Source: Acidobacteria bacterium 13_1_40CM_65_14 (GTDB lineage Bacteria > Acidobacteriota > Vicinamibacteria > Vicinamibacterales > CAVVIG01). Taken from it: DNA of 64,000 nucleotides. Position numbers and translations under genes: made by a program. Where the stretch lies: contig MNEX01000136.1 in NCBI GenBank assembly GCA_001917905.1, forward strand, positions 10,711 through 74,710, in the 5' to 3' direction. The notes beneath the pieces were generated by a model. It did no database searches. It was given only the letters and a program-made list of their open reading frames with translations, and was not told where the DNA came from. Position 1 is the stretch's first letter; each line of letters opens with the position of its first letter. Below are positions 5,552 to 35,498 of the stretch, in pieces.

Positions 5552-5568
5552 GTATTTTGAAACGCACT

Positions 5569-9916: not shown

Positions 9917-10000
9917 TTGATTCGGCACGCTGATCAAACACAATGGACACAAAGGACACAAAGGAAGGTGTGTTGATTCAGTGCCGCTACGCCGAATCGA
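9917..10000. repeat. Hairpin repeat (GGACACAAA units in the loop)
   Basis: ttgattcggcacgctgatcaaacaca ... tgtgttgattcagtgccgctacgccgaatcga. Lies after the receptor stop. Confidence 0.6.
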
Positions 10001-12611: not shown

Positions 12612-13537
12612 TCGGCGGTGCGGCGGCACGAAGAACGCAGAGGGCGCAAAGCTCGCAAAGAAACGCCTTTCTGTCACAGCAGAGTGAACCGTGCTTTGCG
12701 GTCTTGGCGGCCTGTGCGTTCTTCTTTCTATCGGCAGGCGCCGTGCACACCCAGGCGCGGCGCGTGGTGTCCATCATTCCCGCGACGACAGAAATGCTGT
12801 TCGCGATGGGTGCGGGTGATCGACTCGTCGCCGTCGGCAGCTACGACCGCTTTCCATCGGAGGTCGAGAAGCTGCCGCGCGTCGGCGCCCTGCTCGATCC
12901 GGCGGTCGAACGGATTATCGCGATGCGTCCGGATCTCGTGATTCTCTACGGCACGCAGAACGAGCTTCGGACGCAGCTCGACCGCGCGCAGATTGCGTAC
13001 TACTCGTACACGCATCGCGGGCTGACCGATATCACCGAGACCATTCGGTCGCTGGGCGCGCGCGTCGGCGTCGCTCCACGCGCAAACGCCCTGGCCGACA
13101 GCATCGAGCGGCAGCTCGCCGACATCAGGTCGCGCGTCGCCACGAGTCCGAGGCCGAAGACGCTGCTCGTGTTCGGACGCGAGCGCGGCACGCTGAGGAA
13201 CATCGACGCGAGCGGCGGCGTGGGATTCCTGCACGACATGCTCGAAACCGCCGGCGGCGCCGACGTCATGGGCGACGTGAAGCAGCAGTCGGTCATCATG
13301 ACGACGGAGCTGGTGCTGGCGCGGGCGCCGGAGGTGATCATCGAGCTCAGGTACGCGCGCGGCGACGACACCAACGCCACTGACCTGCGCGAGTGGAACG
13401 CGCTGCCGTCGGTGCCGGCGGTGAAGAACCACCGCGTATACATGCTGCGCGGTGAAGAATTCGTCGTGCCCGGTCCTCGCGTCGCCGCGGCCACCGAGCG
13501 CTTGGGCCGCCTCCTGCACCCCGAGGCGTTCAAATGA
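12584..13537 (+). CDS. Periplasmic substrate-binding protein, BtuF/FhuD-like
   Basis: RRVVSIIPATTEMLFAMGAGDRLVAVGSYDRFP ... PDLVILYG. The start is uncertain. The signal-peptide-like CFAVLAACAFFFLSAGAVHTQA is encoded by a repeat arm. Confidence 0.8.
   Translation: MAAVQATRVIGGAAARRTQRAQSSQRNAFLSQQSEPCFAVLAACAFFFLSAGAVHTQARRVVSIIPATTEMLFAMGAGDRLVAVGSYDRFPSEVEKLPRVGALLDPAVERIIAMRPDLVILYGTQNELRTQLDRAQIAYYSYTHRGLTDITETIRSLGARVGVAPRANALADSIERQLADIRSRVATSPRPKTLLVFGRERGTLRNIDASGGVGFLHDMLETAGGADVMGDVKQQSVIMTTELVLARAPEVIIELRYARGDDTNATDLREWNALPSVPAVKNHRVYMLRGEEFVVPGPRVAAATERLGRLLHPEAFK
12627..12725. repeat. Hairpin repeat (CGCAGAG/GCAAAG-type arms)
   Basis: gcacgaagaacgcagagggcgcaaagctcgcaaag ... ctttgcggtcttggcggcctgtgcgttcttc. 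Confidence 0.75.
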
Positions 13538-18966: not shown

Positions 18967-18977
18967 ACGACGAAGCG

Positions 18978-19060
18978 CTCCACCACAGAGGACACGGGGG
19001 ACACGGCGTGGCAAACCTGTTTGGTGAGCAGGTTTGAACCTCCGCGTCCTCCGTGGTAGC
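18978..19060. repeat. Intercistronic hairpin repeat (GAGGACACG-type arms)
   Basis: ctccaccacagaggacacgggggacacgg ... cctccgcgtcctccgtggtagc. Between hscB and hscA. Confidence 0.8.
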
Positions 19061-19066
19061 TAGTTC

Positions 19067-19693
19067 TCACAGCGAGAGCTCCCGTTCAATTCCCGCCAAC
19101 AGATTCGCGATGTAGTTCCGCTCGAGAAATCGCTCGCGGAGCGACTGGAGAATCGCCCGGCGCTCCTCGTCCGGCGCGCCGCGATCGAGGGCGGCGTCCC
19201 ACCGTGTCGAGAGCTCCTGCAACTCCGCTTCGTGATCGGCGCGCTTGGCGTCAATCGGCAGACGGGCGCGTTCGAGGCGACCCTTCAACTGGTCGGCTGG
19301 TGCGCCGCCGGCGCGCATCTCGCGAACCTCGTCGAGCTCTTCGTTCAACGCGAACACTTCCTCGAGCAGCGCAGGCGGGACTTTGTTTACTCCGGGGGCC
19401 CCTGCCCCCCGGTCACGCTTCGCGGGGGCCCCTTCGCCCCGCTCCGCTGCGCCTTCTTCGAGCGTCAACAAATACTCGAGGCGCCGAATCGGGTCGCGAA
19501 GCGTGCGATACGCGTCGTTCAAATACGACGATTGTTCCAGGCTCGCGCGCCGCTCGGCCGCCGGTGCGTTGTAGAAGTAGTCGGGATGAAACTGCCGGCT
19601 GAGCGCGCGATACCGTTGCTCGAGATCGGCCATGTCGAGGTTCAGCTTGCGGGGCAGGCCGAGGAAGCTGAAAAAGTCCGCGCTACGCGCCAA
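19067..19693 (-). CDS. hscB: Co-chaperone HscB (J-domain), with repeat-derived insert
   Basis: FFSFLGLPRKLNLDMADLEQRYRALSRQFHPD (J domain, HPD). Operon position between iscA and hscA. Confidence 0.85.
   Translation of the reverse strand: MARSADFFSFLGLPRKLNLDMADLEQRYRALSRQFHPDYFYNAPAAERRASLEQSSYLNDAYRTLRDPIRRLEYLLTLEEGAAERGEGAPAKRDRGAGAPGVNKVPPALLEEVFALNEELDEVREMRAGGAPADQLKGRLERARLPIDAKRADHEAELQELSTRWDAALDRGAPDEERRAILQSLRERFLERNYIANLLAGIERELSL
19390..19450. repeat. GC-rich palindromic (REP-like) element inside hscB
   Basis: ccgggggcccctgccccccgg ... cgcgggggccccttcgccccgc. Encodes AAERGEGAPAKRDRGAGAPG in frame. Confidence 0.7.
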
Positions 19694-20009
19694 AGGAACT
19701 GCCGCAGCCGCACGTCGACTTGGCGTTCGGGTTGTTGAACACGAACCCCTTGCTGATCATGTTCGTGTCGTAGTCGAGCACCGTGCCGTTGAGATACAGC
19801 AGGCTCTTCTTGTCGACGTAGATCTTCGCGCCGTCGGGCCCCTCGAAGATTTCGTCGCCAAGACGCGGCTGCTTCTCCCACGAGAACGTGTAGCTCAACC
19901 CCGAGCACCCGCCGCCCTTCACGCCGACGCGCAGTCCGCCCTCGTCGATGCCCTGCTTGGCCATCAACGTGCGGATCTTGCGGGCTGCGGTTTCGCTGAT
20001 CTGAATCAT
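19683..20009 (-). CDS. iscA: Fe-S scaffold/carrier IscA (HesB family)
   Basis: LRVGVKGGGCSGLSY ... FNNPNAKSTCGCGSSF. Confidence 0.9.
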   Translation of the reverse strand: MIQISETAARKIRTLMAKQGIDEGGLRVGVKGGGCSGLSYTFSWEKQPRLGDEIFEGPDGAKIYVDKKSLLYLNGTVLDYDTNMISKGFVFNNPNAKSTCGCGSSFGA

Positions 20010-20075
20010 TTTTTACTTTGCGGTGGGGCCCCACCCCCACCGCCTGTCGCCGCTCGCCTTGTCGGCTCGCGGCGG
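20010..20075. repeat. GC-rich palindromic element immediately upstream of the iscA start
   Basis: Gene strand: GCGAGCCGACAAGGCGAGCGGCGACAGGCGGTGGGGGTGGGGCCCCACCGCAAAGTAAAAAATG. Confidence 0.8.
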
Positions 20076-20107
20076 TATATCCCAACGACTTTCTGCTTTC
20101 ACAAACG

Positions 20108-20533
20108 TTATGCAGTGGGTTGCGGCTGCTTCTGTTCAGCCCTGTTCGCGGCCGCCTGCTTTTTCTTGTAGTCGGCGATGGCGGCTTTGATCGCGTCCTC
20201 CGCCAGCACCGAGCAGTGAATCTTGACCGGCGGCAGGCTCAGCTCGGCGACGATCTCGGTGTTCTTGATCGCGAGCGCCTGATCGACGGTCTTGCCCTTG
20301 AGCCATTCGGTCGCCAGGCTCGAGCTCGCAATCGCCGAGCCGCAGCCGAACGTCTTGAACTTCGCATCATCGATGACGCCCGTGTCCGGGTTCACCTTGA
20401 CCTGCAGTTTCATGACGTCGCCGCACTCCGGCGCGCCGACGAGGCCCGTGCCGACGTTGACGTCGTCTTTTGGCAGCGAGCCGACATTGCGCGGGTTCTC
20501 GTAGTGATCGATGACCTTGCTCGAATACGCCAT
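20108..20533 (-). CDS. iscU: Fe-S cluster scaffold IscU
   Basis: MAYSSKVIDHYENPRNVGSL ... GAPECGDVMKL ... FKTFGCGSAIASSS ... LPPVKIHCS. Confidence 0.95.
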   Translation of the reverse strand: MAYSSKVIDHYENPRNVGSLPKDDVNVGTGLVGAPECGDVMKLQVKVNPDTGVIDDAKFKTFGCGSAIASSSLATEWLKGKTVDQALAIKNTEIVAELSLPPVKIHCSVLAEDAIKAAIADYKKKQAAANRAEQKQPQPTA

Positions 20534-20537
20534 GTTC

Positions 20538-21764
20538 TTAATGTCCTTCTGTTTGCCACTGCATCGTGGAGAGGTCGACGCCTTCTTTCGCCAGCTCATA
20601 GAGGGGCGACATTTCCCGCAGCCGCGTCACGACATGCGTCAGTTTGTCCGCGACGTAATCCACTTCCTCTTTCGTCGTCCACCGGCCCAGTCCGAAGCGG
20701 ATGGACGAGTGCGCGAGGTCGTCCCCCGCACCGAGCGCCTTGAGCACGTACGACGGTTCGAGGCTCGCCGACGTGCAGGCCGAACCCGACGAGACCGCGA
20801 CGTCGTTGATCCCCATCAGCAGCGATTCGCCCTCGACGTAGGCGAAGCTGATGTTCAAGTTGTGCGGCAGCCGGTGTTCCACCGAACCGTTGACGTAAAT
20901 CTCGTCGAGGTTCTTGTGAAGCTTGTCGTTGAGGTAATCGCGCAGCTTCCGCAGACGCTCACTCTCGCTCGCCATCTCCTGCCTGCACAGCTCCGCGGCC
21001 TTGCCAAAGCCGACGATGCCGGTGACGTTCAGCGTGCCTGAACGCATGCCGCGCTCGTGGCCGCCGCCATCGATGATCGGGGCGAGCAGCACGCGCGGAT
21101 TTCTGCGCCGGACGTACAGCGCGCCGACGCCCTTCGGTCCGTATATCTTGTGCGCGCTCAGCGAGGCCATGTCGACCTTCAGATCGTTGACGTTGAACGG
21201 CACCTTGCCAACCATCTGAACCGCGTCCGTGTGGAAGAGGATCCCCTTCTCTTTCGCGATCGCGCCAATCTCCGCAATCGGCTGGAGGACGCCGATCTCG
21301 TTGTTGGCCGCCATGATCGTGATGAGGATCGTCTTGTCGCTGATCGCCGCCTTCAGCTCGTCGAGGCTGATCCGGCCGTCCTTCTGCACCGGCAGATAGG
21401 TGACGCGGTAGCCCTCCTTCTCGAGGCGCTTGCACGTGTCGATCACCGCCTTGTGCTCGGTGACGGCCGTGATGATGTGATTGCCCTTCTCGCGATACAT
21501 CTCGGCGACGCCTTTGATCGCGAGGTTGTCCGACTCGGTCGCGCCGCTCGTGAAGACGATTTCCTTGGCGTTCGCGCCGATCAGATCCGCCACCTGCTTG
21601 CGCGCCTTCTCGACGGCTTCTTCCGCTTCCCACCCGAACGGATGATTGCGGCTGGCGGCATTGCCGAAATGCTCGGTGAAGTAGGGAATCATCGCCTCGA
21701 CGACGCGCGGATCGGCCGGCGTGGTCGCGTGATAGTCCATGTAGATCGGGAGCTTGATAGCCAT
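20538..21764 (-). CDS. iscS: Cysteine desulfurase IscS
   Basis: [16 protein letters not shown] ... [10 protein letters not shown] ... [15 protein letters not shown] ... SSGSACTS. Confidence 0.95.
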
Positions 21765-21769
21765 AGCGT

Positions 21770-22231
21770 TCAAATATGCGTGTGAAGCACCGCGGGTTGC
21801 GCGGTCGCCGGCGGCGGGGAATCCGCCGCAAGCTCCGCGATCGTGCATTCTCCGAGCGCGGTCAGAATCCGTTCACGCACGCGCCAGAGCGGGTCGCGTA
21901 CGTTGCATTTCGCGAACTGTTCGCAAAGTCCGTCCTCGGTCGAACAGGCCGTGACGGTCACCGGTCCATCGATCGCTTGAATGACGTCGGCAACCGAAAT
22001 CTGCGACGGAATTCGCGCCAGTTGATACCCGCCACGGGTACCCTGATGCGAAGCGAGCAGTCCGCGCCGAACCAGTCGCTGAAGCACCTTTGCCATGAGC
22101 TCTATCGGAATGTCGTACAGTTCCGCGATTTCCCGGGCTGACGATGACGCCTGGGAGCCCCGGTCGCCTCGCAGCGCCAGGTGTTTCATCGCGATCAAGG
22201 CGTAATCCGCCTTTTTTGACAGCCTCAACAT
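21770..22231 (-). CDS. iscR: Rrf2-family regulator (IscR-like)
   Basis: [19 protein letters not shown] ... [10 protein letters not shown]. Cys residues [14 protein letters not shown]. First gene of the isc operon. Confidence 0.85.
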
Positions 22232-22299
22232 GCCGGTCTTTCACGTATGCGATAGGAAACGTTCCGGCCGCGCGATCCGTACACGGCCTCGTGCTGACC

Positions 22300-22365
22300 C
22301 GGCTTTTTCTTGCTCGCGGGGCCCCGCTCGATCGGCGTCCTCGCGCCTCGCGCGGGCCGCAGGCG
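22300..22365. repeat. GC-rich palindromic element upstream of iscR
   Basis: Gene strand: GCGAGGCGCGAGGACGCCGATCGAGCGGGGCCCCGCGAGCAAGAAAAAGCC. Confidence 0.6.
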
Positions 22366-22413
22366 CATATCCGACCGCTATGGTCTTACTTTAACACACT
22401 GCAGCGGCGCGGT

Positions 22414-23877
22414 TTAGTATTTCGGCTGGGTCGGATCGACCTTGTCTATCCAATCCAGGACGCCGCCCTTCAGGTTCAGAACCTTCTTGAACCCGACCGA
22501 CCTCAGGAAATCCGCAGCTTTCGCGCTCCGCCCGCCCGTCTTGCAGTGCACGACGATCTCATCGTCAGGGTTGAGCTCGTTGACGCGCTTCGGCACGTCT
22601 CCGAGCGGGATGAGCTCGGACCCGGGGATGCGATTGATCTGGTACTCGTTGGGCTCCCGCACGTCGACGATCTTCAGCTTGTCGCCACGGTCGAGCCGTT
22701 GCTTGAGCTCGACCGACGTGATCTCAGTGGCACTGTTCACCGTGATCGGCTCCGGTGCGGCCGGCCTGACGCCGCAGAACTGTTCGTAGTCGATGAGCTG
22801 CGTCACGGTCGGGTGCGTGCCACACACCGGGCAGTCGGGATCCTTGCGCAGCTTCAGTTCGCGGAATCTCATCCGCAGCGCGTCGACGATCAGAAAACGT
22901 CCGATCAGCGGTTCGCCGACGCCGAGAATCAGCTTGATCGTTTCCGTCGCCTGAATCACGCCGATGATGCCCGGCAGCACGCCGAGCACGCCGCCTTCGG
23001 CGCAGCTCGGGACGAGTCCAGGCGGCGGCGGCTCGGGATACAAGCAGCGATAGCACGGACCGTCCTTGGTCGCGAATACCGACGCTTGGCCTTCGAAACG
23101 GAAGATGCTGCCGTAGGCGTTCGGCTTGCCGGTCAGCACGCTCGCGTCGTTGACCAGATAGCGTGTCGGAAAATTGTCCGTGCCGTCGACGATCACGTCG
23201 TACGGCTCGAACAGCTTGAGCGCGTTCTCTGACGAAATCGCGGTCTCGTGCGCGACGACGTCGACGTTCGGATTGAGCGCTTGCAGCCGATCTTTCGCCG
23301 ACGCGAGCTTCGATCGACCGACGTCGGGCGTTCCGTGGAGGATTTGCCGCTGCAAGTTGCTGAAGTCGACGACGTCGAAGTCCACGATGCCGAGCGTGCC
23401 CACGCCGGCGGCGGTGAGATACATGGCGACCGGCGATCCAAGTCCGCCTGCACCGATACACAGCACCTTGGCCGCCTTCAGCTTCCGCTGACCCTCGACG
23501 CCCACCTCCGGCATGATGAGATGCCGCGAGTAGCGTTTGATCTCGTCGTTTGTCAGTTCCGGTAAGGTCCGGCTGACACCGGACACCACATCCGTGACGC
23601 TTGGCGCGCCGCCCGCGACCGACGGGATGATGCTGACCGTGTCGTCCGCGGTCACCGGCGTCTGTTCCTTCTGCAAGTACCGGATGTCTTCGTCGTTGAC
23701 GTACACGTTGACGAAGCTGCGCAGCTTGCCCTGCTCGTTGTAGAGATGCGGCTTGAGACCGGCGTGCCGGCGCGTCAGATCGGCCAGCAGCTCGCCGACG
23801 GTCGCGCCCGACGCGTCAACCGCGTCCTGCTTGTCGGTGTACGGTCTGAGCGGAGTCGGAATGAGAATTTTCACCAT
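22414..23877 (-). CDS. Fusion: ThiS/MoaD/CysO-like ubiquitin-fold domain + MoeB/MoeZ-type E1 adenylyltransferase + rhodanese
   Basis: N-terminal about 90 aa, MVKILIPTPL...VSIIPSVAGG (beta-grasp sulfur carrier ending GG). Then RYSRHLIMPEVGVEGQRKL..VLCIGAGGLGSP, CxxC pairs (CYRC, CPVC), and C-terminal rhodanese VVHCKTGGRS. Confidence 0.85.
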   Translation of the reverse strand: MVKILIPTPLRPYTDKQDAVDASGATVGELLADLTRRHAGLKPHLYNEQGKLRSFVNVYVNDEDIRYLQKEQTPVTADDTVSIIPSVAGGAPSVTDVVSGVSRTLPELTNDEIKRYSRHLIMPEVGVEGQRKLKAAKVLCIGAGGLGSPVAMYLTAAGVGTLGIVDFDVVDFSNLQRQILHGTPDVGRSKLASAKDRLQALNPNVDVVAHETAISSENALKLFEPYDVIVDGTDNFPTRYLVNDASVLTGKPNAYGSIFRFEGQASVFATKDGPCYRCLYPEPPPPGLVPSCAEGGVLGVLPGIIGVIQATETIKLILGVGEPLIGRFLIVDALRMRFRELKLRKDPDCPVCGTHPTVTQLIDYEQFCGVRPAAPEPITVNSATEITSVELKQRLDRGDKLKIVDVREPNEYQINRIPGSELIPLGDVPKRVNELNPDDEIVVHCKTGGRSAKAADFLRSVGFKKVLNLKGGVLDWIDKVDPTQPKY

Positions 23878-24292
23878 GATCGAGACTGCCCTCTTCGAAG
23901 CTCGAACGATCGTTTTTGAGATACCACACCGTCATGTCCGCGGCGGCGCCGTTCATCACCGACACGATGATGTAGGCGAAGGTCGGCCACGCGTGATCGA
24001 GATCGTACTGCGACGGCCGCGATGGATGATCCGGGTGCGAGTGATAGAACCCAAGGAGCTCGCCGCCCATTTCGGTCGCCCGCCGCTCGGCCTGCCGGTA
24101 ATCGGACGGTCGCACCAGAAACCGGCGCCGCGGTCCTTCCTCGGTTGTGTTCGGGAGCGCGACGACCGTCGTCACGATATCGCCTTTGCCGACGAGCGCC
24201 CCGCAGCACTCGTGCGGATACGTCTCCTGACCGTGCGCGCGAATCGCGTGCTCCACGTCGCCTGTGATGATCAATCGCCGATCAGCTGCCAT
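23816..24292 (-). CDS. JAMM/MPN+ metalloprotease (Mec-like)
   Basis: YPHECCGALVG ... GFYHSHPDHPSRPSQYD (ExnHxHx7Sx2D JAMM motif). Confidence 0.85.
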   Translation of the reverse strand: MAADRRLIITGDVEHAIRAHGQETYPHECCGALVGKGDIVTTVVALPNTTEEGPRRRFLVRPSDYRQAERRATEMGGELLGFYHSHPDHPSRPSQYDLDHAWPTFAYIIVSVMNGAAADMTVWYLKNDRSSFEEGSLDHGENSHSDSAQTVHRQAGRG

Positions 24293-25235
24293 GTTGCTCC
24301 GCGGTCCAGAAGCTTTCTGTCAGGTACTTCTCGGCGCCGTCGGGAAACACGGTCACGACGATGCCGCTGTCGAGACGCTTGGCGACATCGAGCGTCGCGG
24401 CAATCGCGGCGCCCGACGAGATCCCCGCAAGCAGACCCTCTTCCCGGGCGAGACGGCGGACCATGCGATACGCGCGCTCGGTGTCGATCCGCAAATCCTC
24501 GTCGGCGAGCGTCGGATCGTAGATGCCCGGGACGATCGCCGACTCCATGTGCTTGAGACCTTCGAGTCCATGGAACGGCGAGTCGGGCTGAAACGAGATC
24601 AGCTTGATCGACGGATTGAACTTCCGCAGCCGGCGTCCGATCCCGATAAACGTGCCGCTCGTTCCCAGGCCGGCGACGAAGTGCGTCATGCGGCCGCTCG
24701 TCTGCTCGATGATTTCCGGTGCGGTCGTATCGTAATGCGCCTGCCAGTTCGCGTCGTTGTTGTACTGATCGGGATAGAAGTAGCGGTCCGGATCCGACGC
24801 GTACAGCCGCCGCGCTTCGCGAATCGCGCCGTCGCTGCCTTCGAGTGGACTCGTGAGCACGAGCTCGGCGCCAAGCGCGCGCAGAATCAGCTTGCGTTCG
24901 GGGCTCGCGTTCTCCGGCACGCACAACTTCACCTTGTAGCCGCGCGCCGCGCCGACCATCGCGTACGCGATGCCGGTGTTCCCCGAGGTCGCATCGAGAA
25001 TCGTGCGGTCAGGCGTCAGCGTGCCCTTCGCCTCGCCGTCGAGGATCATCCGCGCCGCGGCGCGGTCTTTCACCGATCCGCCAGGGTTTTGCCATTCCGC
25101 TTTCGCGTAGATCTCGACGCCGGGCGTCTCCCGCTCGAACTGGTGCAGCCGCACGAGCGGCGTGCGCCCGATCATGTCGAGCACGGACGAGCCGGGCGCT
25201 CGGTCCAGCACGGAAGACGCGTCTGATGAGGACAT
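24282..25235 (-). CDS. cysM: Cysteine synthase, CysM/CysO-dependent type
   Basis: AEWQNPGGSVKDRAA ... DATSGNTGIAYA ... GLGTSGT. PLP beta-replacement family. Confidence 0.9.
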   Translation of the reverse strand: MSSSDASSVLDRAPGSSVLDMIGRTPLVRLHQFERETPGVEIYAKAEWQNPGGSVKDRAAARMILDGEAKGTLTPDRTILDATSGNTGIAYAMVGAARGYKVKLCVPENASPERKLILRALGAELVLTSPLEGSDGAIREARRLYASDPDRYFYPDQYNNDANWQAHYDTTAPEIIEQTSGRMTHFVAGLGTSGTFIGIGRRLRKFNPSIKLISFQPDSPFHGLEGLKHMESAIVPGIYDPTLADEDLRIDTERAYRMVRRLAREEGLLAGISSGAAIAATLDVAKRLDSGIVVTVFPDGAEKYLTESFWTAEQHGS

Positions 25236-25291
25236 GGGATATATACGACCGACTGAGTCGGTGATTGTATCAACTATACTCCGGCCCGTCG

Positions 25292-25906
25292 ATGACCCAC
25301 CTCGGCGGTTGGTTGTTCCGCCACCGCACGATCATTCCGCTTCCGCTCGCGATCGCCGTGCTGCTGCTGCGGATCGGCGAGGCGCCGCCTTCCAAATGGC
25401 TCATCGCAAGCGGGATCGGCCTCACGTTGACGGGCGAAGCGATCCGGTTGTGGGCCGTTCACCACATCGGCGCGATCTCGCGGACGCGAAGCGATCGCCT
25501 CGGCCCGCTCATCGCCGCCGGGCCGTTCGCAGTGGTGCGCAATCCGCTCTATCTGGGGAACATCGCACTGTGGGCAGGGTTTGCGATGGCGGCCCGGCTC
25601 CTCTGGCTGGTGCCGGTCATCGTCGTGCTGCTCGCGGTGGAATATCACGCGATCGTGCGCTGGGAGGAGCAGGTGCTCGAAGCGCGCTACGGTGACGAGT
25701 ATCGTGCGTACGCCGCGCGCGTGCCGCGATGGTGGCCCACGTTCAACCGCGGAGCGCGCAGAACTCGCAGAGAAAACGTGTTCTCTGCGAACTCAGCGAA
25801 CTCCGCGGTTGCTTTCTCCTGGCGCGAGACGCTGTTCAGCGAGCGCGGCACGCTCATCGCCATCGCAGCTGGATTTTTCCTGCTCTGGCTCAAACTTAGA
25901 ACTTAG
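25292..25906 (+). CDS. Isoprenylcysteine carboxyl / phospholipid methyltransferase-family membrane protein
   Basis: GPFAVVRNPLYLGNIALWAGFA ... EEQVLEARYGDEYRAYAARVPRWWP. The C-terminal tail runs through two repeats. ATG at 25292 preferred over TTG at 25265. Confidence 0.75.
   Translation: MTHLGGWLFRHRTIIPLPLAIAVLLLRIGEAPPSKWLIASGIGLTLTGEAIRLWAVHHIGAISRTRSDRLGPLIAAGPFAVVRNPLYLGNIALWAGFAMAARLLWLVPVIVVLLAVEYHAIVRWEEQVLEARYGDEYRAYAARVPRWWPTFNRGARRTRRENVFSANSANSAVAFSWRETLFSERGTLIAIAAGFFLLWLKLRT
25749..25807. repeat. Hairpin repeat (CGCAGAG-type) inside the 3' part of the methyltransferase ORF
   Basis: gcggagcgcgcagaactcgcagagaaaacgtgttctctgcgaactcagcgaactccgc. Confidence 0.7.
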
Positions 25907-25982
25907 AACTTAGAACCTAGAACTTCGAACTCAGAACCCAACCGAGCACAGTTCTAAGTTCTGAGTTTTGAGTTCTTAGTTC
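25893..25982. repeat. Hairpin repeat (AGAACTT-type heptamer arms) between convergent genes
   Basis: acttagaacttagaacttagaacctagaacttcgaactcagaac ... gttctaagttctgagttttgagttcttagttc. Both flanking stop codons lie inside the arms. Confidence 0.85.
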
Positions 25983-26610
25983 CGCGCGGCGGAGTTTCGC
26001 GGAGCGTCTGCCAGAGATACCACGACGCGACCGATCGATACGGACGCCACGCTTCGCCCATTTTCAGGATGCGCTTCGGATCGGGACGCTTGCGGAGCCG
26101 ATAGAGGCGCTGAATCGCATTGACGATGCCGAGGTCGCCCGCCGGCAGGACGTCCGGGCGATGAAGCCGGAACATCAGAAACATTTCGGCCGTCCATCGG
26201 CCGAAGCCTTTGACCGACGTCAGCCGCTCGATGACCAGGTCGTCAGGCAATGCATCGAGCTCGTCGAGATTCAGCCGGCCATCGGCGATGCGCGCGGACA
26301 GATCGCGCAGATACCCGATCTTCTGTCCGCTCAAACCGACTCCGCGTAGCGTCGGGTCATCCAGCCCATCAATCGCCGCCGCGCTCGTGATTTGGTTGTC
26401 CGGAAACAACGCCGCGAACCTTCCGAAGATCGTCGCGGCCGCTTTGGTTGACAGCTGTTGACTGACGATCGCTCCGATGAGCGCGGTGAGATGGTCTTTG
26501 CGCTGGCGCTCCGCCATGCGACACGCCCCGATGCGCTTGATCGCTTCGGCAAGAATCGGATCGCGCCGCATCAAGAGACGCCGCGCGCGCTGGTAATCCG
26601 CCTCTGTCAT
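25954..26610 (-). CDS. DNA-3-methyladenine glycosylase II-like (HhH-GPD, AlkA family)
   Basis: IVSQQLSTKAAATIFGRF ... LTSVKGFGRWTAEMFLMF..RPDVLPAGDLG. Confidence 0.85.
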   Translation of the reverse strand: MTEADYQRARRLLMRRDPILAEAIKRIGACRMAERQRKDHLTALIGAIVSQQLSTKAAATIFGRFAALFPDNQITSAAAIDGLDDPTLRGVGLSGQKIGYLRDLSARIADGRLNLDELDALPDDLVIERLTSVKGFGRWTAEMFLMFRLHRPDVLPAGDLGIVNAIQRLYRLRKRPDPKRILKMGEAWRPYRSVASWYLWQTLRETPPRGTKNSKLRT

Positions 26611-27302
26611 TTCATCGACGCCGTCAAGGTCACGCGTGCGTGGATTTCGATGAGTCCGGGCTCGACCGGCGTCTGCGCCGGGCTCTCGGCCGTGCGGGCC
26701 ATCGTCATCATCGGCCTCGGTGGCATGATGCCGCTATCGCGCGAATCCTCGATGCGCAACACGCGATCGATGGCACGGCCCGCGCCCGATGCCGCGGCTT
26801 CGGCGCGTGCACGGGCGTCGGCGACGGCGAGTCGCAGCGCTTCGCGTTCGACGCTGTCGCGATCCTGCAGATCGAACCGGATGCCGCTGACCGACGTGGC
26901 GCCCGACTGTACGACCGCGTCGAGCATCTCACCGGTCCGCGCGATGTCGTCCACGCGGACTTCGATGCCGTTGCGCGCCACGAACTCGCGCAGCACGCGC
27001 CGGCCCTGCACGAAGTCGAACTCCTGCTGGAGGTCGTAGCCGGTCGTACGGATGGCGTCTTTCGCGATGCGCGCCTGCGTCAGCCGCTGCTGGACCGCGG
27101 TCATCGCCTCCGCGTTCAAGCGCTGCGCGTCACGCGGACTCTTCGAGCGCGTCTCGACGCTCACGGTGACGAACGCGCGGTCGGGCGCACGACGGACCGT
27201 CGCCTCGCCAACCGTCACGACGACCGGACCCTGTGGCTGCGCCGGCTCTTGAGCGGCGACGGCGCAGGCCAGGGCGATCCAAACGACTGCTATGAGCCGC
27301 AT
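26607..27302 (-). CDS. SIMPL/DUF541 periplasmic protein
   Basis: MRLIAVVWIALACAVAAQ signal, then VTVSVETRSKSPRDAQRLNAEAM ... GIRFDL.D......AL..AV.DARARAE. Confidence 0.8.
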   Translation of the reverse strand: MRLIAVVWIALACAVAAQEPAQPQGPVVVTVGEATVRRAPDRAFVTVSVETRSKSPRDAQRLNAEAMTAVQQRLTQARIAKDAIRTTGYDLQQEFDFVQGRRVLREFVARNGIEVRVDDIARTGEMLDAVVQSGATSVSGIRFDLQDRDSVEREALRLAVADARARAEAAASGAGRAIDRVLRIEDSRDSGIMPPRPMMTMARTAESPAQTPVEPGLIEIHARVTLTASMK

Positions 27303-28081
27303 ACGATCCGGAACCCGATGCTGTGCGCGTAGGTGTCCGGCGGAACCTTGTGACGATACGCACATCGAAGCATCGACACGTCGTCGTTCACCCAGGAACC
27401 GCCACGCACGATGCGCATGCTGCCGGTCGCGAGGCCCTGAGGGTCGCGCATCTCGCCGAGCCCATAGTAGTCCGCGCTGTACCAGTCGGACACCCATTCC
27501 CAGACATTGCCCGACATGTCGTAAAGGCCGTATGCATTGGGCGAATAGGTGCCGGTCGGACGCGTGCCGCGCTCCCGTTTGAACGACGGGTCCGTCAGGT
27601 AGTTGCACCGCGACGAATCGATGTCGTCGCCCCACGGATAGCGCTGACCTTCGAGGCCGCCGCGCGCCGCTTTTTCCCATTCCGCTTCGGTCGGCAGGCG
27701 CACGACGCGTCCCAGCGAATCGGACAGCCACCGACAGTAGGCCTGCGCATCGTCGTAGCGCGTGAGCACCACGGGATGACTGCCGTGACCGGCCGGCGGA
27801 TTGCCCTCCTCCCAGACGTACGGCGCCGCGAGCTCGCGGAACATCGAATCGCGGCCGCCGAGCGTCACGAGCGGCAGGCCGCGGATCGACGGCGCCGGAT
27901 AGCCGGTCTCGCGGATGAATCGCGCGTACTCGTCCTGCGTGACCGCGAAGCGGCTGATGAAGAATTCGCTGACGAAGATGCGATGAACGGGACGCTCGTC
28001 CTGTTCGAAGTCCGGCGCGCCCATCAGAAAGTCGCCGGCGGGAATCCGCGCGAGGTTCGGGGTTGTCGCGAGCGTCATCAT
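27290..28081 (-). CDS. Formylglycine-generating-enzyme family protein (SUMF1/FGE-sulfatase domain)
   Basis: IPAGDFLMGAP...ERPVHRIFVSEFFISRFAVT ... RLPTEAEWEKAARGG ... GNVWEWVSDWY ... RIVRGGSW. The start is uncertain (28081 versus 28159). Confidence 0.8.
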   Translation of the reverse strand: MMTLATTPNLARIPAGDFLMGAPDFEQDERPVHRIFVSEFFISRFAVTQDEYARFIRETGYPAPSIRGLPLVTLGGRDSMFRELAAPYVWEEGNPPAGHGSHPVVLTRYDDAQAYCRWLSDSLGRVVRLPTEAEWEKAARGGLEGQRYPWGDDIDSSRCNYLTDPSFKRERGTRPTGTYSPNAYGLYDMSGNVWEWVSDWYSADYYGLGEMRDPQGLATGSMRIVRGGSWVNDDVSMLRCAYRHKVPPDTYAHSIGFRIVCGS

Positions 28082-28157
28082 GCCTTCGGGCGCGGCCGTG
28101 GTGATCGCCCGTCTGTCTGCACTTGTGTCCAAAGCGGTGAGTATATAGTCTGCGCTC

Positions 28158-29342
28158 ATGAAACTCGAACAGTTTGCGATGGAACGCATGCAATCCACCT
28201 ATGAAAACCAGGTGGAGTTCAACCTGTCGGAGAGCGGCGTGCAGCCGCTGCGCCTCGCCGAGCTCGTCGACGATGAGGCTGCACGCAACGCGCTGATGAC
28301 TGAAGCGCTCCGTTATACACAGTCGAACGGCACTGTGCCCTTGAGGTCGGATATCGCCGCGCTGTATTCGGGGGCGGACGCGGATCGCGTGCAGGTCACC
28401 AACGGCGGATCGGAAGCCAACTACATCACGACGTGGCACCTCGTCGAGCCGGGCGATGAAGTCGTGCTGATGGTGCCGAACTACATGCAGACGTGGGGTC
28501 TGGCGCGCGCGTTCGGCGGCATCGTGAGAGAGTGGCCGCTCGTCCCCGCCGAAGCCGCACGCGGCGAAGGCGGGCGCTGGCGGGTCGACATTGATGCGCT
28601 CGCTCGTCTGGTGTCGTCGCGAACGAAGCTGATCATCATCTGCAATCCGAACAACCCGACCGGCGCACGCATCGACGCGGCGGATCTCGACGGCATCGCC
28701 GCGATTGCGTCACGGCACGGCACGTGGATTCTCTCGGACGAGATCTATCGCGGAGCGGAGCTCGACGGCCGCGAGACGCCGTCGATGTGGGGCCGCTCGG
28801 ATCGCGTCATCGTCACGAGCGGTCTGTCGAAAGCGTACGGACTGCCGGGACTCCGGATTGGCTGGATCGTCGGACCGCCCGCGACCGTCGCGTCGCTGTG
28901 GTCGTATCACGATTACACGACCATTTCGCCAGGCGCGCTCAGCGATTTCCTGGCGCGGCGCGCGCTCGCGCCCTCGCACCGCGCCCGCATCCTCGCGCGG
29001 ACGCGGAAGATTCTGAACGAGAACTTTCCCGTCATCGCGCAGTGGCTTGACGCGCACGGCGGCCTCTTCAGCTACGCGCCGCCCGACGCGGGCGCCATCG
29101 TGTACGTCCGCTACCACCATCCCATCAACTCGACGGATCTCGTCACCAGGCTGCGCGAGCAGAAAAGCGTGCTGATCGTCCCGGGCGATCACTTCGGCAT
29201 GGACGGCTATCTGCGAATCGGCTTCGGCGACGATGTCGAGTACCTGCGGAAGGGATTGAATCGGCTGGATGAGCTGTTGACGGAGCTGGTCCGGCTGAGG
29301 CCGGACACCACCGGAACCACGGCGCCAACCGTTGCCCGGTGA
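28158..29342 (+). CDS. Class I/II PLP-dependent aminotransferase
   Basis: 394 aa. NPNNPTG ... SGLSKAYGLPGLRIGW (PLP-lysine motif). Confidence 0.85.
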   Translation: MKLEQFAMERMQSTYENQVEFNLSESGVQPLRLAELVDDEAARNALMTEALRYTQSNGTVPLRSDIAALYSGADADRVQVTNGGSEANYITTWHLVEPGDEVVLMVPNYMQTWGLARAFGGIVREWPLVPAEAARGEGGRWRVDIDALARLVSSRTKLIIICNPNNPTGARIDAADLDGIAAIASRHGTWILSDEIYRGAELDGRETPSMWGRSDRVIVTSGLSKAYGLPGLRIGWIVGPPATVASLWSYHDYTTISPGALSDFLARRALAPSHRARILARTRKILNENFPVIAQWLDAHGGLFSYAPPDAGAIVYVRYHHPINSTDLVTRLREQKSVLIVPGDHFGMDGYLRIGFGDDVEYLRKGLNRLDELLTELVRLRPDTTGTTAPTVAR

Positions 29343-29460
29343 GGTTCGATCTCGTTCTCGTTTACTCGGGAGATCGCGATCGTCCAGCGCGGCGGGAACC
29401 TGACGCAGACGGCCTACGCGCTCGTCTCAGATTTAGTGGCTATTGCTAATCTGGTGGCCC

Positions 29461-29706
29461 CTACCCCCCGGCGTTCGCGCGCCAGTCGGCAATCGCGGTC
29501 ATGAGCGCCGGCTCGTCGAAACCTTTGATCGTGCGATCGCCGAATACCGTGACCGGAATCGTACGGAATCCGCGCGCGATGAGATCGCCGTACGCGCGAT
29601 CGTCCTCGTCGACGTTGTACGCCGTGAACGGCACACCTTCGCGTGAAAGCAACGCTTTCACCTGTTCGCAGCTGCGTCAGGCGCTGCCAGCGTAGACGAT
29701 AATCAT
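29461..29706 (-). CDS. Glutaredoxin-like (NrdH/YruB-type) protein with in-frame TGA at the first active-site Cys: candidate selenoprotein, or nonsense pseudogene
   Basis: ATG 29706 gives MIIVYAGSA-[TGA 29679..29677]-RSCEQVKALLSREGVPFTAYNVDED...TIPVTVFGDRTIKGFD, i.e. a U-x-x-C in place of C-x-x-C. The ORF track reports only the 66-aa part after the TGA. Confidence 0.5.
29643..29661 (-). promoter_or_regulatory. SECIS-like stem-loop downstream of the in-frame UGA
   Basis: mRNA: UGA-CGCAGCUGCGAACAG-GUGAAAGC-GUU-GCUUUCAC. Perfect 8-bp stem, 3-nt loop starting with G, loop 23 nt from the UGA. Confidence 0.4.
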
Positions 29707-29715
29707 CTGTTCATT

Positions 29716-31020
29716 ATGCCGTCACTCGATGGAATCACCGTGCTCGACCTGACGCGCGTGCTGTCGGGCCCGTACTGCGCGATGATGCTCGGCGACATGG
29801 GTGCGCGCGTCATCAAGATCGAACAGCCAGGTAAAGGCGACGACACGCGCGCGTGGGGGCCGCCGTTTCTGCACCCCAGCGCGCACAAACCGCGCGCTGG
29901 GGACCCCGGCTTCCACCCCAGCGCGCACAAACCGCGCGCTGGGGACCCCGGCTTCCACCCCAGCGCGCACAAACCGCGCGCTGGGGACCCCGGCTTGGAA
30001 GGCGAGAGCGCGTACTTCCTCAGCATCAACCGGAACAAGGAAAGCGTCACGCTCGACTTCAAGCATCCCGAGGGCCGCGCGATCCTCGATCGCCTCATCG
30101 CCAAGAGCGACGTCCTGGTCGAAAACTTCCGTCCAGGCACGCTGGCCAAGATGGGACTCGACTACGCGTCGCTGGCGCCGAAGCATCCACGGCTCGTGTA
30201 CGCGTCGGTGTCGGGCTTCGGGCAGACGGGCCCGCGCCGCACGGAGCCGGGCTATGACGCGGTGATCCAGGCGGAAGGCGGGCTGATGAGCATCACCGGC
30301 GCACCGGACGGTCCGCCGTATCGACTCGGCGTCGCGATCGCGGACATCGTGTCGGGCATGTTTGCCGCGTATGGCGTCGTCACGGCGCTCTTTGCACGCG
30401 AGCGCACCGGCCGCGGCCAGATGGTGGACGTCGCGATGCTCGACGCCGTCGCCGCGCTGCTGACGTACCAGGCCGGCAATTACTTCGCGAGCGGCAACGT
30501 GCCCGCGCGGCTCGGCAATCGCCACCCGAGCATCGTGCCGTACGAGACGTTCGCGGCCGAGGACGGCGAGTTCGTGCTCGCGGTCGGCAACGAAGACTTG
30601 TGGCGCCGCTTCTGCGAGGTGGCCGAGCTCGATCTCGGCGAGCGCTTCGCCACGAATCGTCAGCGGGTCACGCAATACGACGGGCTGCGCCCGCTGATTG
30701 CCGACGCGCTTCGGCGTCACACGCGGCAGTACTGGATCGAGCGGCTGACGGCAGCCGGCGTCCCGTGCGGATCGGTCCGCAATCTGCAAGAGGTGTTCGA
30801 CGATCCACAGCTCGGCGCGCGAGCGATGATCGCCGAGCTCGAACATGCGACGATCGGTCCACTGAAAATGCTCGGCGTGCCGGTGAAGCTGTCGGAAACG
30901 CCCGGCGCCGTGCGGACGCCGCCACCACGGCTCGGCCAACACACGGACAGCGTGCTGCAGCACGATCTCGGTTTCGACACCGACGCCATCACGCGGCTGC
31001 GCGCGCAGAAGGTTGTCTAA
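29716..31020 (+). CDS. Family III CoA-transferase (CaiB/BaiF)
   Basis: LDGITVLDLTRVLSGPYCAMMLGDMGARVIKIEQPGKGDDTRAWGPPF ... SAYFLSINRNKES ... VENFRPG ... SGFGQTGP. Confidence 0.9.
   Translation: MPSLDGITVLDLTRVLSGPYCAMMLGDMGARVIKIEQPGKGDDTRAWGPPFLHPSAHKPRAGDPGFHPSAHKPRAGDPGFHPSAHKPRAGDPGLEGESAYFLSINRNKESVTLDFKHPEGRAILDRLIAKSDVLVENFRPGTLAKMGLDYASLAPKHPRLVYASVSGFGQTGPRRTEPGYDAVIQAEGGLMSITGAPDGPPYRLGVAIADIVSGMFAAYGVVTALFARERTGRGQMVDVAMLDAVAALLTYQAGNYFASGNVPARLGNRHPSIVPYETFAAEDGEFVLAVGNEDLWRRFCEVAELDLGERFATNRQRVTQYDGLRPLIADALRRHTRQYWIERLTAAGVPCGSVRNLQEVFDDPQLGARAMIAELEHATIGPLKMLGVPVKLSETPGAVRTPPPRLGQHTDSVLQHDLGFDTDAITRLRAQKVV
29872..29997 (+). repeat. 3 x 42-bp tandem hairpin repeat, in frame within the CoA-transferase
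   Basis: caccccagcgcgcacaaaccgcgcgctggggaccccggcttc x3. Encodes HPSAHKPRAGDPGF x3. Each unit holds an 11-bp perfect stem, ccccagcgcgc/gcgcgctgggg. Confidence 0.95.
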
Positions 31021-31120
31021 GCGGGCGGACGGCATCGAAACGGCACACGCGCGAGCGGCGACAGGCGCCCTGGGCTTCTGGTACCGCGGACTGAGCGGAT
31101 AGACGTCGCGAGCAACCGGC

Positions 31121-31172
31121 GCGAGCCAAAGGCGAGCGCCGACAGGTGGCGGGGGTGGAGCCCCGCCACACC
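31121..31172. repeat. GC-rich palindromic element immediately upstream of a start codon
   Basis: GCGAGCCAAAGGCGAGCGCCGACAGGTGGCGGGGGTGGAGCCCCGCCACACCTAAGAAAACGATG. Near-identical in layout to the iscA copy. Confidence 0.8.
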
Positions 31173-31182
31173 TAAGAAAACG

Positions 31183-31608
31183 ATGGAAACCTCCAACGTC
31201 CGCCAACGACTGCAGCAAACCATCGAGCGCGCCAGGCGCAGCGCGGGCGAGCGGCGCGCGCGCAACGACGAAGCCACGCGCGCCTTCAACGACTTCCTCG
31301 ACCACGTGGCGGTTCCGCTGTTCAAGCAGATCGCCAACGTCCTCAAGATCGAGAACTACCCGTTCACCGTGTTCACGCCGGCGGGCAACGTCCGGTTGAT
31401 GTCCGACAGAAGCGCAGACGACTATATCGAGCTTGCACTGGATACGAGCGACGCAGAGCCGCGCGTGATGGCGCACATCAGCCACAGCCGCGGCCGGCGC
31501 GTCGTCGACGCCGAACAGGTGGTTGGAAGCGGCCGGCCGGAGACGCTCACCGAAGAAGATCTGTTCGCGTTTCTGCTGAAGGAACTGGAACCGTTCGTCG
31601 AGCGGTGA
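31183..31608 (+). CDS. Hypothetical protein
   Basis: 141 aa, coding-like composition. No family recognised. Confidence 0.55.
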   Translation: METSNVRQRLQQTIERARRSAGERRARNDEATRAFNDFLDHVAVPLFKQIANVLKIENYPFTVFTPAGNVRLMSDRSADDYIELALDTSDAEPRVMAHISHSRGRRVVDAEQVVGSGRPETLTEEDLFAFLLKELEPFVER

Positions 31609-31617
31609 CACAACGTC

Positions 31618-31680
31618 AAACGCAGAAACCGCAGAACACGCAGAGAAAGGCTTGCTCTGCGGATTCAGCGAGTTCTGCGT
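31618..31680. repeat. Hairpin repeat (CGCAGAA-type arms)
   Basis: aaacgcagaaaccgcagaacacgcagagaaaggcttgctctgcggattcagcgagttctgcgt. Confidence 0.8.
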
Positions 31681-31698
31681 CGAGCGGTGACACCACGA

Positions 31699-31770
31699 CG
31701 AACGCAAAGGTCGCAAAGGCCGCAAAGCAAGATTTTCTCTGCGGTCTTCGCGGTCTTTGCGTTCTTCGGT
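31699..31770. repeat. Hairpin repeat (CGCAAAG-type arms)
   Basis: cgaacgcaaaggtcgcaaaggccgcaaagcaagattttctctgcggtcttcgcggtctttgcgttc. Confidence 0.8.
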
Positions 31771-31772
31771 TT

Positions 31773-33950: not shown

Positions 33951-34060
33951 TTTCTTGACGAGCGCGGGGCCCCAGCCCCGCGCCTGACGCCCTCGAGGCT
34001 TTCTCCAATGCTCGCGGGGCCCCACCCCCGCTCGCCTCGCTCGCGCATTCGCACTCCCTC
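33951..34060. repeat. Two GC-rich palindromic elements upstream of the PilT-like gene
   Basis: gcgcggggccccagccccgcgc and gctcgcggggccccacccccgctcgcctcgctcgc. Confidence 0.7.
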
Positions 34061-35489: not shown

Positions 35490-35498
35490 ATCGTCTGA

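Follow-up and report, generated by a model that had tools for sequence, protein, structure and literature searches.

An abundant, modular and strand-asymmetric palindromic repeat at gene starts in Vicinamibacterales

The described systems closest to the element reported here are small palindromic repeats of other bacterial groups. Repetitive extragenic palindromic (REP) sequences and the bacterial interspersed mosaic elements (BIME), known from Enterobacteria and Pseudomonas and tagged by GTAG/CGTC, lie close to the 3' ends of genes (PMC3733652). REP/BIME attenuate or stabilise transcripts, enterobacterial repetitive intergenic consensus (ERIC) sequences undergo orientation-dependent cleavage by RNase E, Correia repeats are cleaved by RNase III, and the BOX elements of Streptococcus pneumoniae are transcribed within mRNAs and are reported to stimulate or inhibit downstream genes according to module and orientation (PMC3049150). 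Here we describe a GC-rich palindromic element that precedes the start codons of iscA, queD, ubiE and other genes in a stretch of 64,000 nucleotides (nt) of contig MNEX01000136.1, hereafter the window, where we name its copies by the downstream or host gene. The repeat is abundant, modular, structurally constrained and strand-asymmetric, with gains and losses at orthologous sites. With moderate confidence, we regard it as a member of an abundant family of mosaic palindromic repeats of the REP/BIME/BOX kind, specific to Vicinamibacterales, that would bring co-transcribed hairpins and an open leader to its host transcripts; it is probably a portable mRNA hairpin and ribosome landing pad rather than a gene-specific switch. 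The literature on Acidobacteria REPs, on Vicinamibacter palindromic repeats and on the core sequence gave no description of it, the papers on "palindromic repeats" appearing to mean CRISPR. The family is apparently undescribed, and unusual for a leader-like tail that abuts starts, for stems with tandem G·A and for inserting into open reading frames (ORFs) in the sense orientation only.

A full copy measures about 100 nt (60-110 nt across the family) and consists of hairpin 1 (HP1), hairpin 2 (HP2) and an A-rich tail. The copies before iscA, a hypothetical gene and queD can be aligned with full copies of other genomes along about 100 nt, and RNAalifold predicted both hairpins on ten full copies, with compensatory changes at seven pairs. 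HP1 has a 6-bp stem, a 5'-GA-3' facing 5'-GA-3' (tandem G·A), 2 bp and a small, often GNRA-like loop, and HP2 (22-26 nt) has a variable, covarying lower stem of 4-6 bp, four invariant G-C pairs and a GUGGGG loop. Two folds of the palindrome had been proposed in the first-pass annotation of the window; the hairpin with the 6-nt GUGGGG loop stands, but the GGGGCCCC palindrome alone is sterically impossible, as it leaves no loop. A second class of HP2, to which a stem classifier assigned 65 copies, carries GCGAGC on either side of the core and forms an HP1-like tandem G·A stem; in a raw positional tally, 45 of 138 unique cores had A·G or G·A at positions 3-4 of the stem. The tail, 10-13 nt long with the consensus A-N-T-(G/A)-A-R-A-A-A-(A/T)-G, ends at the ATG. 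A accounts for 50-80% and C for 0-6% of its positions 5-10, and T for 5-20% of the tail, in a genome of 65% GC. In many copies a TGA or TAA occupies a fixed place in it, mostly in frame with the following ATG (38 cases, versus 17 and 6 in the other frames). Leaders of element-free genes are not A-rich (about 20% A), which rules out such leaders as a general feature of the clade, and the A-rich tail is also missing from the empty iscU-iscA junctions described below; therefore, the tail arrives with the element. Longer copies start with (G)TAGCGCCTGCGGCC, often exactly on the upstream stop codon, and their stems, which contain two tandem G·A motifs, reach 15 "pairs"; short modules of the form TGGGGCCCC-GCGAGC-tail can follow in tandem. 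The full set of modules comprises an optional 5' motif (G)UAGCGCCUGCGGCC (GCGCCTGCGGCC), one to three GC stems with tandem G·A (CGAG/CGAG), HP2 in either class and the tail, and since these vary in number and combination the family is a mosaic.

Both hairpins are conserved as structures. Among 87 distinct HP2 sequences, chosen without any pairing requirement, 83.7% of the alignment cells were paired, the exceptions being mostly of the G·A class, and 144 cells carried double changes versus 57.5 in shuffles (none of 500 as high); controls with the stem slid along the sequence gave 26-57% paired cells. For the whole covariance model, which was trained on 10 full copies, the corresponding values from 114 model-aligned copies, in an alignment that leans towards the model, were 92.8% paired cells and 247 double changes versus 83 (0 of 500 shuffles as high), with 38-55% paired in slid controls and covariation present in both hairpins. 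Orthologous iscA copies keep HP2 paired through different lower stems (GCGGU/ACCGC, GUGGC/GCCAC, GCGCU/AGCGC and GUGGU/ACCAC), and copies within one genome have diverged, to roughly 70-75% as judged by eye from the alignment rather than computed. This divergence with retained pairing therefore speaks for long residence under structural selection and not for recent bursts. As for the strand that folds, the tandem G·A of HP1 is near-invariant (G 80/82 and A 78/82; G 83/83 and A 74/83), and G·U pairs exceed A·C pairs by 48 to 21 (p=0.0016) over both hairpins in the model-fitted alignment, which leans towards the model; the raw HP2 flanks at stem positions 1-5 showed no such asymmetry (20 versus 22). 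From the near-invariant tandem G·A and the G·U excess it follows that the folding strand is the purine-rich, mRNA-sense strand. Over 87 nt, the predicted folding energy comes to about -44 kcal/mol, compared with -33 kcal/mol for random windows. The predicted unpaired probability of positions -12 to +6 around the start codon is 0.58 with the element and 0.43 in other genes (p=1.4e-6), and it falls to 0.43 when the element is flipped in silico (p=5e-4).

The core GGGGGTGGRGCCCC, searched over the whole window with at most two mismatches, gave 10 matches versus 0.67 expected, a number reached by none of 100 shuffles, and the oriented GC-rich element that the first-pass annotation had placed before start codons is thus real. 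A scan for hairpins in which GGGG, a loop of 5-7 nt and CCCC stand on an extension of 3-6 bp found seven copies. Further searches, with the bare GGGGCCCC palindrome and with the covariance model run with its filters off, brought the combined result to 10 loci, about one per 6-8 kb. As had been claimed, the copies share one orientation relative to the transcript: every one in the window is sense to its host or downstream gene, the two on the + strand pairing with + strand genes, and the covariance-model search, which recovered the same set of loci, found no antisense copy there. Replication strand was rejected as the cause of this bias for the window, because both orientations occur within one monotonic stretch of cumulative GC skew, each following the local gene.

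Outside the window, a pattern scan of species-representative genomes (one per species) returned at least 118 matching stretches, and among those listed nearly all came from metagenome-assembled genomes (MAGs) labelled Vicinamibacterales, Vicinamibacteria, Acidobacteria gp6 or Acidobacteriota; soil metagenomes and MAG GCA_036738555.1 contain strains near-identical to the window. The covariance model gave 115 matches at E<=1e-3 in 0.79 Mb of MAG loci together with the window. A wider tabulation of orientation and of distance to start codons, proposed along with the original claim, was made on 166 cores from the window and loci L011-L128 (about 80 Vicinamibacterales MAGs), and it extends the bias beyond the window. 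Between tandem gene pairs 74 copies are sense and 14 antisense, or 54 versus 11 when counted per spacer (p=6e-8), and the ratio stays at about 4-5:1 at stricter gene-score cut-offs. Copies cluster 10-29 nt upstream of start codons: 61 of the 166 cores (about 37%) are followed at that distance by the ATG of an ORF 60 or more codons long. A downstream start lies within 40 nt of 28 of the 74 sense copies (38%) and of 0 of the 14 antisense copies, five of which are found within 24 nt of an upstream stop; among sense copies, only 8% have an upstream stop within 40 nt. Copies are found in tandem, divergent and convergent spacers in the same proportions as the background (chi-square p=0.75). Co-directional genes flank 66 of 86 regions, and in 12 regions the copy stands before a first gene in a divergent spacer, such as that of queD. 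The fixed distance to the ATG claimed for the window holds for four copies (iscA, hypothetical gene, queD and the type II secretion ATPase gene T2SSE, 10-13 nt from the hairpin foot), but not for ubiE (35 nt, with an extra module), the M16 peptidase gene (21 nt, with GGAGG) or iscR (about 70 nt).

The gain and loss of the element can be followed at the iscU-iscA junction, for which we compared the orthologues of window positions 19000-20600 in 80 metagenome loci (L129-L208; IscA identity 88-98%). Empty junctions, the state in many relatives, consist of a TAATG or TGATG overlap, or of a stop-start gap of 5-10 nt. The element fills the junction in the window and in L130/131, L132, L172/186, L178 and L203, with a variant in L192, and the covariance model matches eight such junctions; others hold at least seven unrelated repeat families, classical GTAG REPs included. 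In a tree of iscA, element-bearing loci occur in several groups, interspersed with empty or otherwise filled sites. Comparison of empty with filled iscU-iscA junctions revealed no target-site duplication, and the element has no terminal inverted repeats, its 5' end being a GC-rich segment or a (G)TAG motif and its other end the A-rich tail; a strict miniature inverted-repeat transposable element (MITE) was rejected on both counts. In these 80 loci the junction and the linker of the HscB J-domain are hot spots for at least seven unrelated small repeat families, among them GAGGATTTGAGGAT hairpins, GCTGACAGCTGA, ATGGCTGATGGCT, CACGAAAACACGAAA hairpins, CCCGAATCCCGAAT and two types of GTAG REP.

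The element has also entered coding sequence in frame. In the ArsA-like protein, TPERESLRSSARSSARGGGAPRASE stands directly before YDVIIVDTAPTGH in the second half, where the first half has only ADSRR at the same point, and the segment from PG(V/I/L)DE to DTAPTGH measures 54 residues here versus 31 in 95 of 117 homologous segments. Similarly, the HscB linker has 38 residues versus 26 in 40 of 58 orthologues; a DRGAGAPGVN-like insert recurs in the HscB of a distant lineage (L191), and related shorter inserts are present in L165 and L207. Peptides such as ..ERESLRSSAR..GGGAPRA.. and ..GVGPRAIKN.. occur in frame in unrelated proteins of other MAGs, and further copies inside ORFs were found in L013, L046, L078, L090 and L112.

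Compared with the known systems, the element stands nearest to REP/BIME, which are likewise short, GC-rich, imperfect palindromes of high copy number, mostly intergenic, co-transcribed (as is inferred here), mosaic with other motifs and occasionally in frame in genes. With an HP2 of 22-26 nt and 115 matches in 0.79 Mb it agrees with the definition of a REP as a palindrome of 20-40 nt in many interspersed copies, and its few modules in variable number and combination agree with that of a BIME or BOX mosaic. REP/BIME sometimes supply a TAG stop at their 5' end, and here the (G)TAGCGCCTGCGGCC of the longer subfamily sits on upstream stops. Unlike REPs, the element has no consistent GTAG or CGTC tag beside the hairpin: of 58 perfect-stem copies only 5 carry GTAG ahead of the stem, other common 4-mers being GTTC, GCGA and GCAG, and genuine GTAG REPs of different sequence coexist in the same loci. 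The element also differs from REPs in lying near the downstream start instead of the upstream 3' end, without enrichment in convergent spacers, in forming strongly oriented singletons instead of inverted dimers, and in its A-rich tail and tandem G·A stems. BOX elements (boxA-boxB(n)-boxC) resemble it in being modular, with variable internal modules and a stable RNA fold (PMC3049150), but they are unrelated in sequence, the host of our element being high in GC, and they have terminal inverted repeats related to insertion sequences, which the element lacks. Pneumococcal small repeats, SPRITE most of all, are over-represented between convergent genes (PMC3049150), in contrast to the element. Correia (CREE/NEMIS) and ERIC sequences share with it the position beside or within operons, and once transcribed they form RNA hairpins at which RNase III or RNase E cuts in an orientation-dependent manner; Correia repeats can also create promoters. 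These are, however, true MITEs with terminal inverted repeats and TA duplication, symmetric enough to serve in both orientations and without a start-abutting A-rich tail. Rickettsia palindromic elements (RPE) are in-frame palindromic repeats in genes that add 20-50 residues in surface loops, comparable to the gain of 23 residues in the ArsA loop and 12 in the HscB linker, both absent from most homologues; they differ in being longer (about 100-150 bp) and in belonging to an AT-rich, obligate intracellular lineage, whereas the present copies are mostly intergenic and start-abutting. Finally, the Acidobacteria-specific structured Acido-1 RNA (RF01686) is the sole Rfam model that touches HP2, but it does so with its 3' hairpin only, at 11.1 bits against a gathering threshold of 50 (E=7.2), and the element is not a member of it. 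No other family of Rfam 15 fits either: a scan of the window at gathering thresholds gave only the signal recognition particle RNA and a cobalamin riboswitch, and permissive scans gave noise besides Acido-1.

We propose that the element is transcribed together with the neighbouring genes and that its two hairpins would fold locally on the sense RNA, by which an insert of about 100 nt would be kept from interfering with the sequence around it. By analogy with REP, ERIC and Correia repeats, the hairpins probably block exonucleases or mark a processing boundary. The C-free, A-rich tail is predicted to keep the start region open and could thereby give ribosomes a place to land, with no more than a weak GAG core instead of a full Shine-Dalgarno (SD) sequence. 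In this way the element might take the place of the TAATG overlap at tight junctions such as iscU-iscA without silencing the downstream gene, and copies in the opposite orientation beside a start codon would be selected against; an open landing site would account both for iscA presumably escaping silencing and for antisense copies never standing beside a start codon. SD use has been reported for only 41% of Vicinamibacteria genes (PMC10783764), and because of this a leader without a canonical SD would suit the host class. A constraint or function at the RNA level, and initiation without a canonical SD, are then plausible from strand bias, nearness to start codons, covariation, the sense-strand fold and the open tail, as the first-pass annotation had proposed, although they are unproven. 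The contrast drawn there with neutral REP scatter fails, since the element is itself REP/BIME-like, varies at orthologous sites, inserts in frame and precedes unrelated genes; nor is the orientation bias unique to the element, because the GTAG REPs of the same genomes are similarly biased towards the sense strand.

Several observations weigh against the favoured reading of hairpins with an open leader. Copies inside genes are sense in 17 cases and antisense in 3, where a sense fraction of 0.41 was expected (p=9e-5), and because a tail inside an ORF cannot serve as a ribosome site this bias calls for another cause; ORF integrity was ruled out as that cause, since antisense insertion would leave more frames open (2.49 versus 1.70 of 3) and an antisense excess is predicted. 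Antisense copies make up about 17% of those in tandem pairs, and many sense copies have no start codon nearby. In the window and L011-L128, GTAG REPs in tandem pairs have GTAG on the sense strand at 8 independent loci versus 0, or 23 versus 3 once iscA orthologues are counted, and the sense bias may perhaps be a general property of the hairpin repeats of this order and not of the element's tail. Folding energy does not discriminate between the strands, the sense strand being 3.5 kcal/mol stabler and random windows oriented by their G-rich strand 3.1 kcal/mol. The genes behind the positional counts were called with a codon-score caller trained on the window, with start codons that are approximate, and the functional steps proposed above are read from sequence and models. 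Transcription-linked insertion, or a general RNA-level rule for hairpin repeats, is therefore to be taken seriously, either as a rival or as an added cause. One bolder extension would make the element a mobile "translation-initiation cassette", a ribosome-loading leader without canonical SD that holds a fixed start-codon register (T(G/A)A stop, short spacer, ATG) and replaces stop/start overlaps and native leaders across Vicinamibacterales, its near-exclusive sense orientation, inside ORFs too, arising from transcription-linked, possibly RNA-templated copying and not from selection alone; we consider this rather unlikely.

Among the other explanations, a purely selfish REP- or MITE-like repeat is possible, if doubtful. 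Its bias would come from insertion, for example by a single-strand transposase (HUH-type or other) acting on the non-template strand exposed by transcription, or by RNA-mediated copying that favours stop/start junctions. The variable presence at orthologous junctions, which are hot spots common to many repeat families, agrees well with such a repeat, as do the GTAG REPs with their same bias, the asymmetric, strand-specific hairpins that recall the substrates of single-strand transposases, and the sense bias inside ORFs, which goes beyond selection on translation initiation and is opposite to what ORF integrity predicts. Yet a crude HUH...Y..NP pattern search of six-frame translations from about 1.3 Mb of fragmentary genomes found no gene resembling a Y1 or REP-associated tyrosine transposase (RAYT), GTAG does not stand consistently beside the hairpin, and diverged copies still pair through compensatory changes, the orthologous iscA site included. 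Antisense copies exist yet never beside a start codon, which fits selection better than a strict insertion mechanism. A gene flanked by two inverted copies in L085 encodes, by eye, a secreted-protein-like N-terminus and not a transposase. It is distinctly unlikely that the element serves mainly as an intercistronic processing or stability element, with hairpins that stop 3'->5' exonucleases and protect the upstream cistron, an A-rich stretch that is an RNase E-type site, and a nearness to the ATG that is secondary. The predominance of spacers between co-directional genes, the strong conserved hairpins beside an unstructured A-rich segment and the precedents of REP/BIME, ERIC and Correia (PMC3049150) would suit this role; copies also stand before first genes in divergent spacers, however, cutting in the tail would strip the downstream gene of its leader, and the element lies near the downstream start and not the upstream stop, unlike REPs (PMC3733652).

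The first-pass annotation had also raised a portable promoter with its 5' untranslated region, in which the segment 5' of HP1 would fire downstream transcription. Candidate boxes can be written before queD (TTGACT-17 nt-TGACCA) and iscA (TTGTGA-17 nt-GATATA), the queD copy leaves only about 35 nt of its 136-nt divergent spacer outside the element, and the 5' segment is conserved among full copies of different genomes. A sigma-70 consensus scan of positions 19000-36000 (the queD, ArsA and M16 copies lie outside this range) nevertheless found no canonical promoter-like site in the copies there; the -10-like TAACCA, TGACCA and GAATCA are without the conserved final T of the TAnnnT boxes that precede other genes of the window, and many copies are short modules without the 5' segment or lie within operons and ORFs. 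Non-canonical promoters may occur in copies, but a promoter as the element's basis is very unlikely. Least probable, to the point that we give it hardly any weight, is that the element co-regulates a regulon as a dedicated cis-regulatory RNA, either a riboswitch or a leader to which a protein or small RNA binds: a conserved, covarying structure on the sense strand just upstream of starts is what such an RNA would look like, but the downstream genes are unrelated (iscA, queD, ubiE, T2SSE ATPase, M16 peptidase, hypotheticals), the orthologous iscA of close relatives does without the element, copies lie inside ORFs, Rfam gives no match, and no conserved internal loop or junction offers a ligand pocket. 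An intrinsic terminator was rejected, the tail being A-rich without a U-tract and none being called at the copies in 19000-36000, and so were an integron attC site and a CRISPR, given flanking genes of core operons, copies inside ORFs and no array structure.

Vicinamibacterales are among the most abundant soil bacteria and are molecularly almost unstudied. An element found ahead of about one gene in ten, bringing two conserved hairpins and a leader without a canonical SD, would influence how operons are expressed, how stable their mRNAs are and where gene starts are annotated across the order. It offers a natural test of how small repeats invade tight stop/start junctions without killing the downstream gene, and a clear case of transcription-oriented repeat insertion, in frame in housekeeping proteins (HscB, ArsA) included. 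For MAGs, where these repeats inflate ORF calls, the covariance model provides a way to mask or annotate them.

All copies named at first (iscA, hypothetical gene, queD, ubiE, the PilT-like gene, iscR, hscB and the ArsA-like gene) exist in the window, and Pfam agrees with every gene name given, the queD product belonging to the PTPS family. The iscA copy (20010-20107, - strand; 82.8 bits, E=3.7e-28) is full length and occupies the entire iscU-iscA spacer; its part at 20010-20075 reads ...GCGAGCCGACAAGGCGAGCGGCGACAGGCGGTGGGGGTGGGGCCCCACCGCAAAGTAAAAAATG on the - strand, as originally written. From the iscU stop it runs through cgtttgtgaaagcagaaagtcgttgggatatacc, the 5' conserved segment, to HP1 (20049-20073, GCCGCGAGCC-GACAA-GGCGAGCGGC, tandem G·A included), the linker gacag, HP2 (20020-20043, GCGGU-GGGG-GUGGGG-CCCC-ACCGC in the RNAalifold structure), the tail (20010-20019, AAAGUAAAAA, aaagtaaaaa) and the iscA ATG at 20009-20007. 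The full-length copy at 31085-31182 (+ strand; 78 bits) precedes the hypothetical gene 31183-31608 and comprises HP1 at 31117-31141, HP2 at 31146-31169 (GUGGC-GGGG-GUGGAG-CCCC-GCCAC) and the tail at 31170-31182; it is kept in 9 of 10 near-identical strains and broken by another repeat in L006. There, in the orthologue of window 31021-31182 (L006:1020-1305), the loop of HP1 has received a MITE-like hairpin repeat (..AACGCACAGATCGCAAAGCGCGCAAAG..), about 120 nt long and with CAAAG at both flanks, and relatives of this repeat are found in the window at 12619-12735, 25731-25775, 31596-31778, 56068-56146 and 61188-61265. The third full-length copy, that of queD (56539-56640, - strand; 63.1 bits), lies in the divergent spacer with HP1 at 56578-56600, HP2 at 56550-56572 (5-nt loop GUGGG) and the tail AGAAAGAAAAA at 56539-56549.

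Other copies are composite, degenerate or inside genes. The composite ubiE copy (35318-35480, - strand; 29.3 bits) starts with the 5' motif GCGCCUGCGGCC at 35469-35480, followed by several GCGAGC/G·A stems, HP2 (35353-35378), an additional short segment and the tail GAGAAAGUAAAAA (35318-35330). The T2SSE ATPase gene, called PilT-like at first, has a copy of two modules (33951-34035, - strand; 24.5 and 19.1 bits), HP2a at 34010-34035 with a tandem G·A stem of the GCGAGC / GGGGGUGGGGCCCC / GCGAGC type and HP2b at 33962-33983 with the loop CUGGGG, the tail UCGUCAAGAAA at 33951-33961 leading to the ATG at 33950. In several assemblies this gene (31773-34025, - strand) starts at GTG 34025 (750 residues) and reads through the element; the start that fits the tail, ATG 33950 (725 residues), is 25 codons shorter and is the one called in L006. 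The ORF is called too long in those assemblies because the element is ORF-like. At the M16 peptidase gene, a degenerate copy of the longer subfamily that was not listed originally (58194-58303, + strand; E=0.04) spans the whole spacer from the stop codon at 58191-58193 to the ATG at 58304, in the order GGCGCCUGCGGCC.., G·A stem, GCGCC-GGGG-GUACAGG-GGCCC-GGCGC and tail CAGUGCAAUGAAGGAGGUCCG. The iscR copy (22303-22366, - strand) is a short GGGGCCCC variant about 70 nt before the iscR ATG, marginal in the model (E=0.21), and consists of the 5' motif GCGCCUGCGGCC, GCGAGG stems, GAGC-GGGGCCCC-GCGAGC and the tail AAGAAAAAG. The ArsA-like copy (48770-48844, - strand; 31.3 bits, HP2 at 48777-48802) lies in frame in the second half of its gene, and the degenerate hscB copy (19392-19435, - strand), in frame in the linker (..EGAPAKRDRGAGAPGVN..) and with two GGGGCCCC cores, is likewise marginal (E=0.14).

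The window is unusually rich in small repeats. Several of its genes show a clear TAnnnT box 7-12 nt upstream of the ATG but lack an SD, for example those at 28158, 35499 and 54740-55072 (- strand), and further ones at 56675, 25292 and 29716; this pattern in the sequence suggests that leaderless or very short-leader mRNAs may be common in the organism of the window. At 29872-29997, three tandem 42-nt palindromic units (CACCCCAGCGCGCACAAACCGCGCGCTGGGGACCCCGGCTTC) of a different family lie in frame in the family III CoA-transferase gene (29716-31020), which has about three 14-residue repeats (HPSAHKPRAGDPGF/L) between GPPF and SAYFLSINRNK, and the called length of this protein, 341-448 residues among near-identical strains, suggests variation in repeat copy number. 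Two GTAG REPs, each with GTAG, an 8-bp stem and a TTNA loop, stand head-to-head at 7467-7492 (- strand) and 7515-7540 (+ strand), within the Rfam-called cobalamin riboswitch at 7394-7584, and the pair appears to be tolerated in a variable part of it. Gene boundaries also carry interspersed short-period repeats of the families GGACACGGAGGACA.., AACTTAGAACTTAGAAC.. and GGACACAAAGGACACAAAG, in many cases as inverted pairs, at 1957-2054, 5456-5553, 18973-19010 and 49322-49409; 25879-25944, 45891-45928 and 50328-50365; and 9929-9963 and 59719-59753. Inverted copies of about 185 nt, 84-90% complementary and made of CGCGGTGGGGACCCCGCGCTCGCACCCCACCGCGCAGGCGTGCGCGGTGG-like units, are found 11 kb apart at 36185-36369 and 47228-47448, and the spacer at about 36177-36368 differs in length among L001, L002, L003 and L006.

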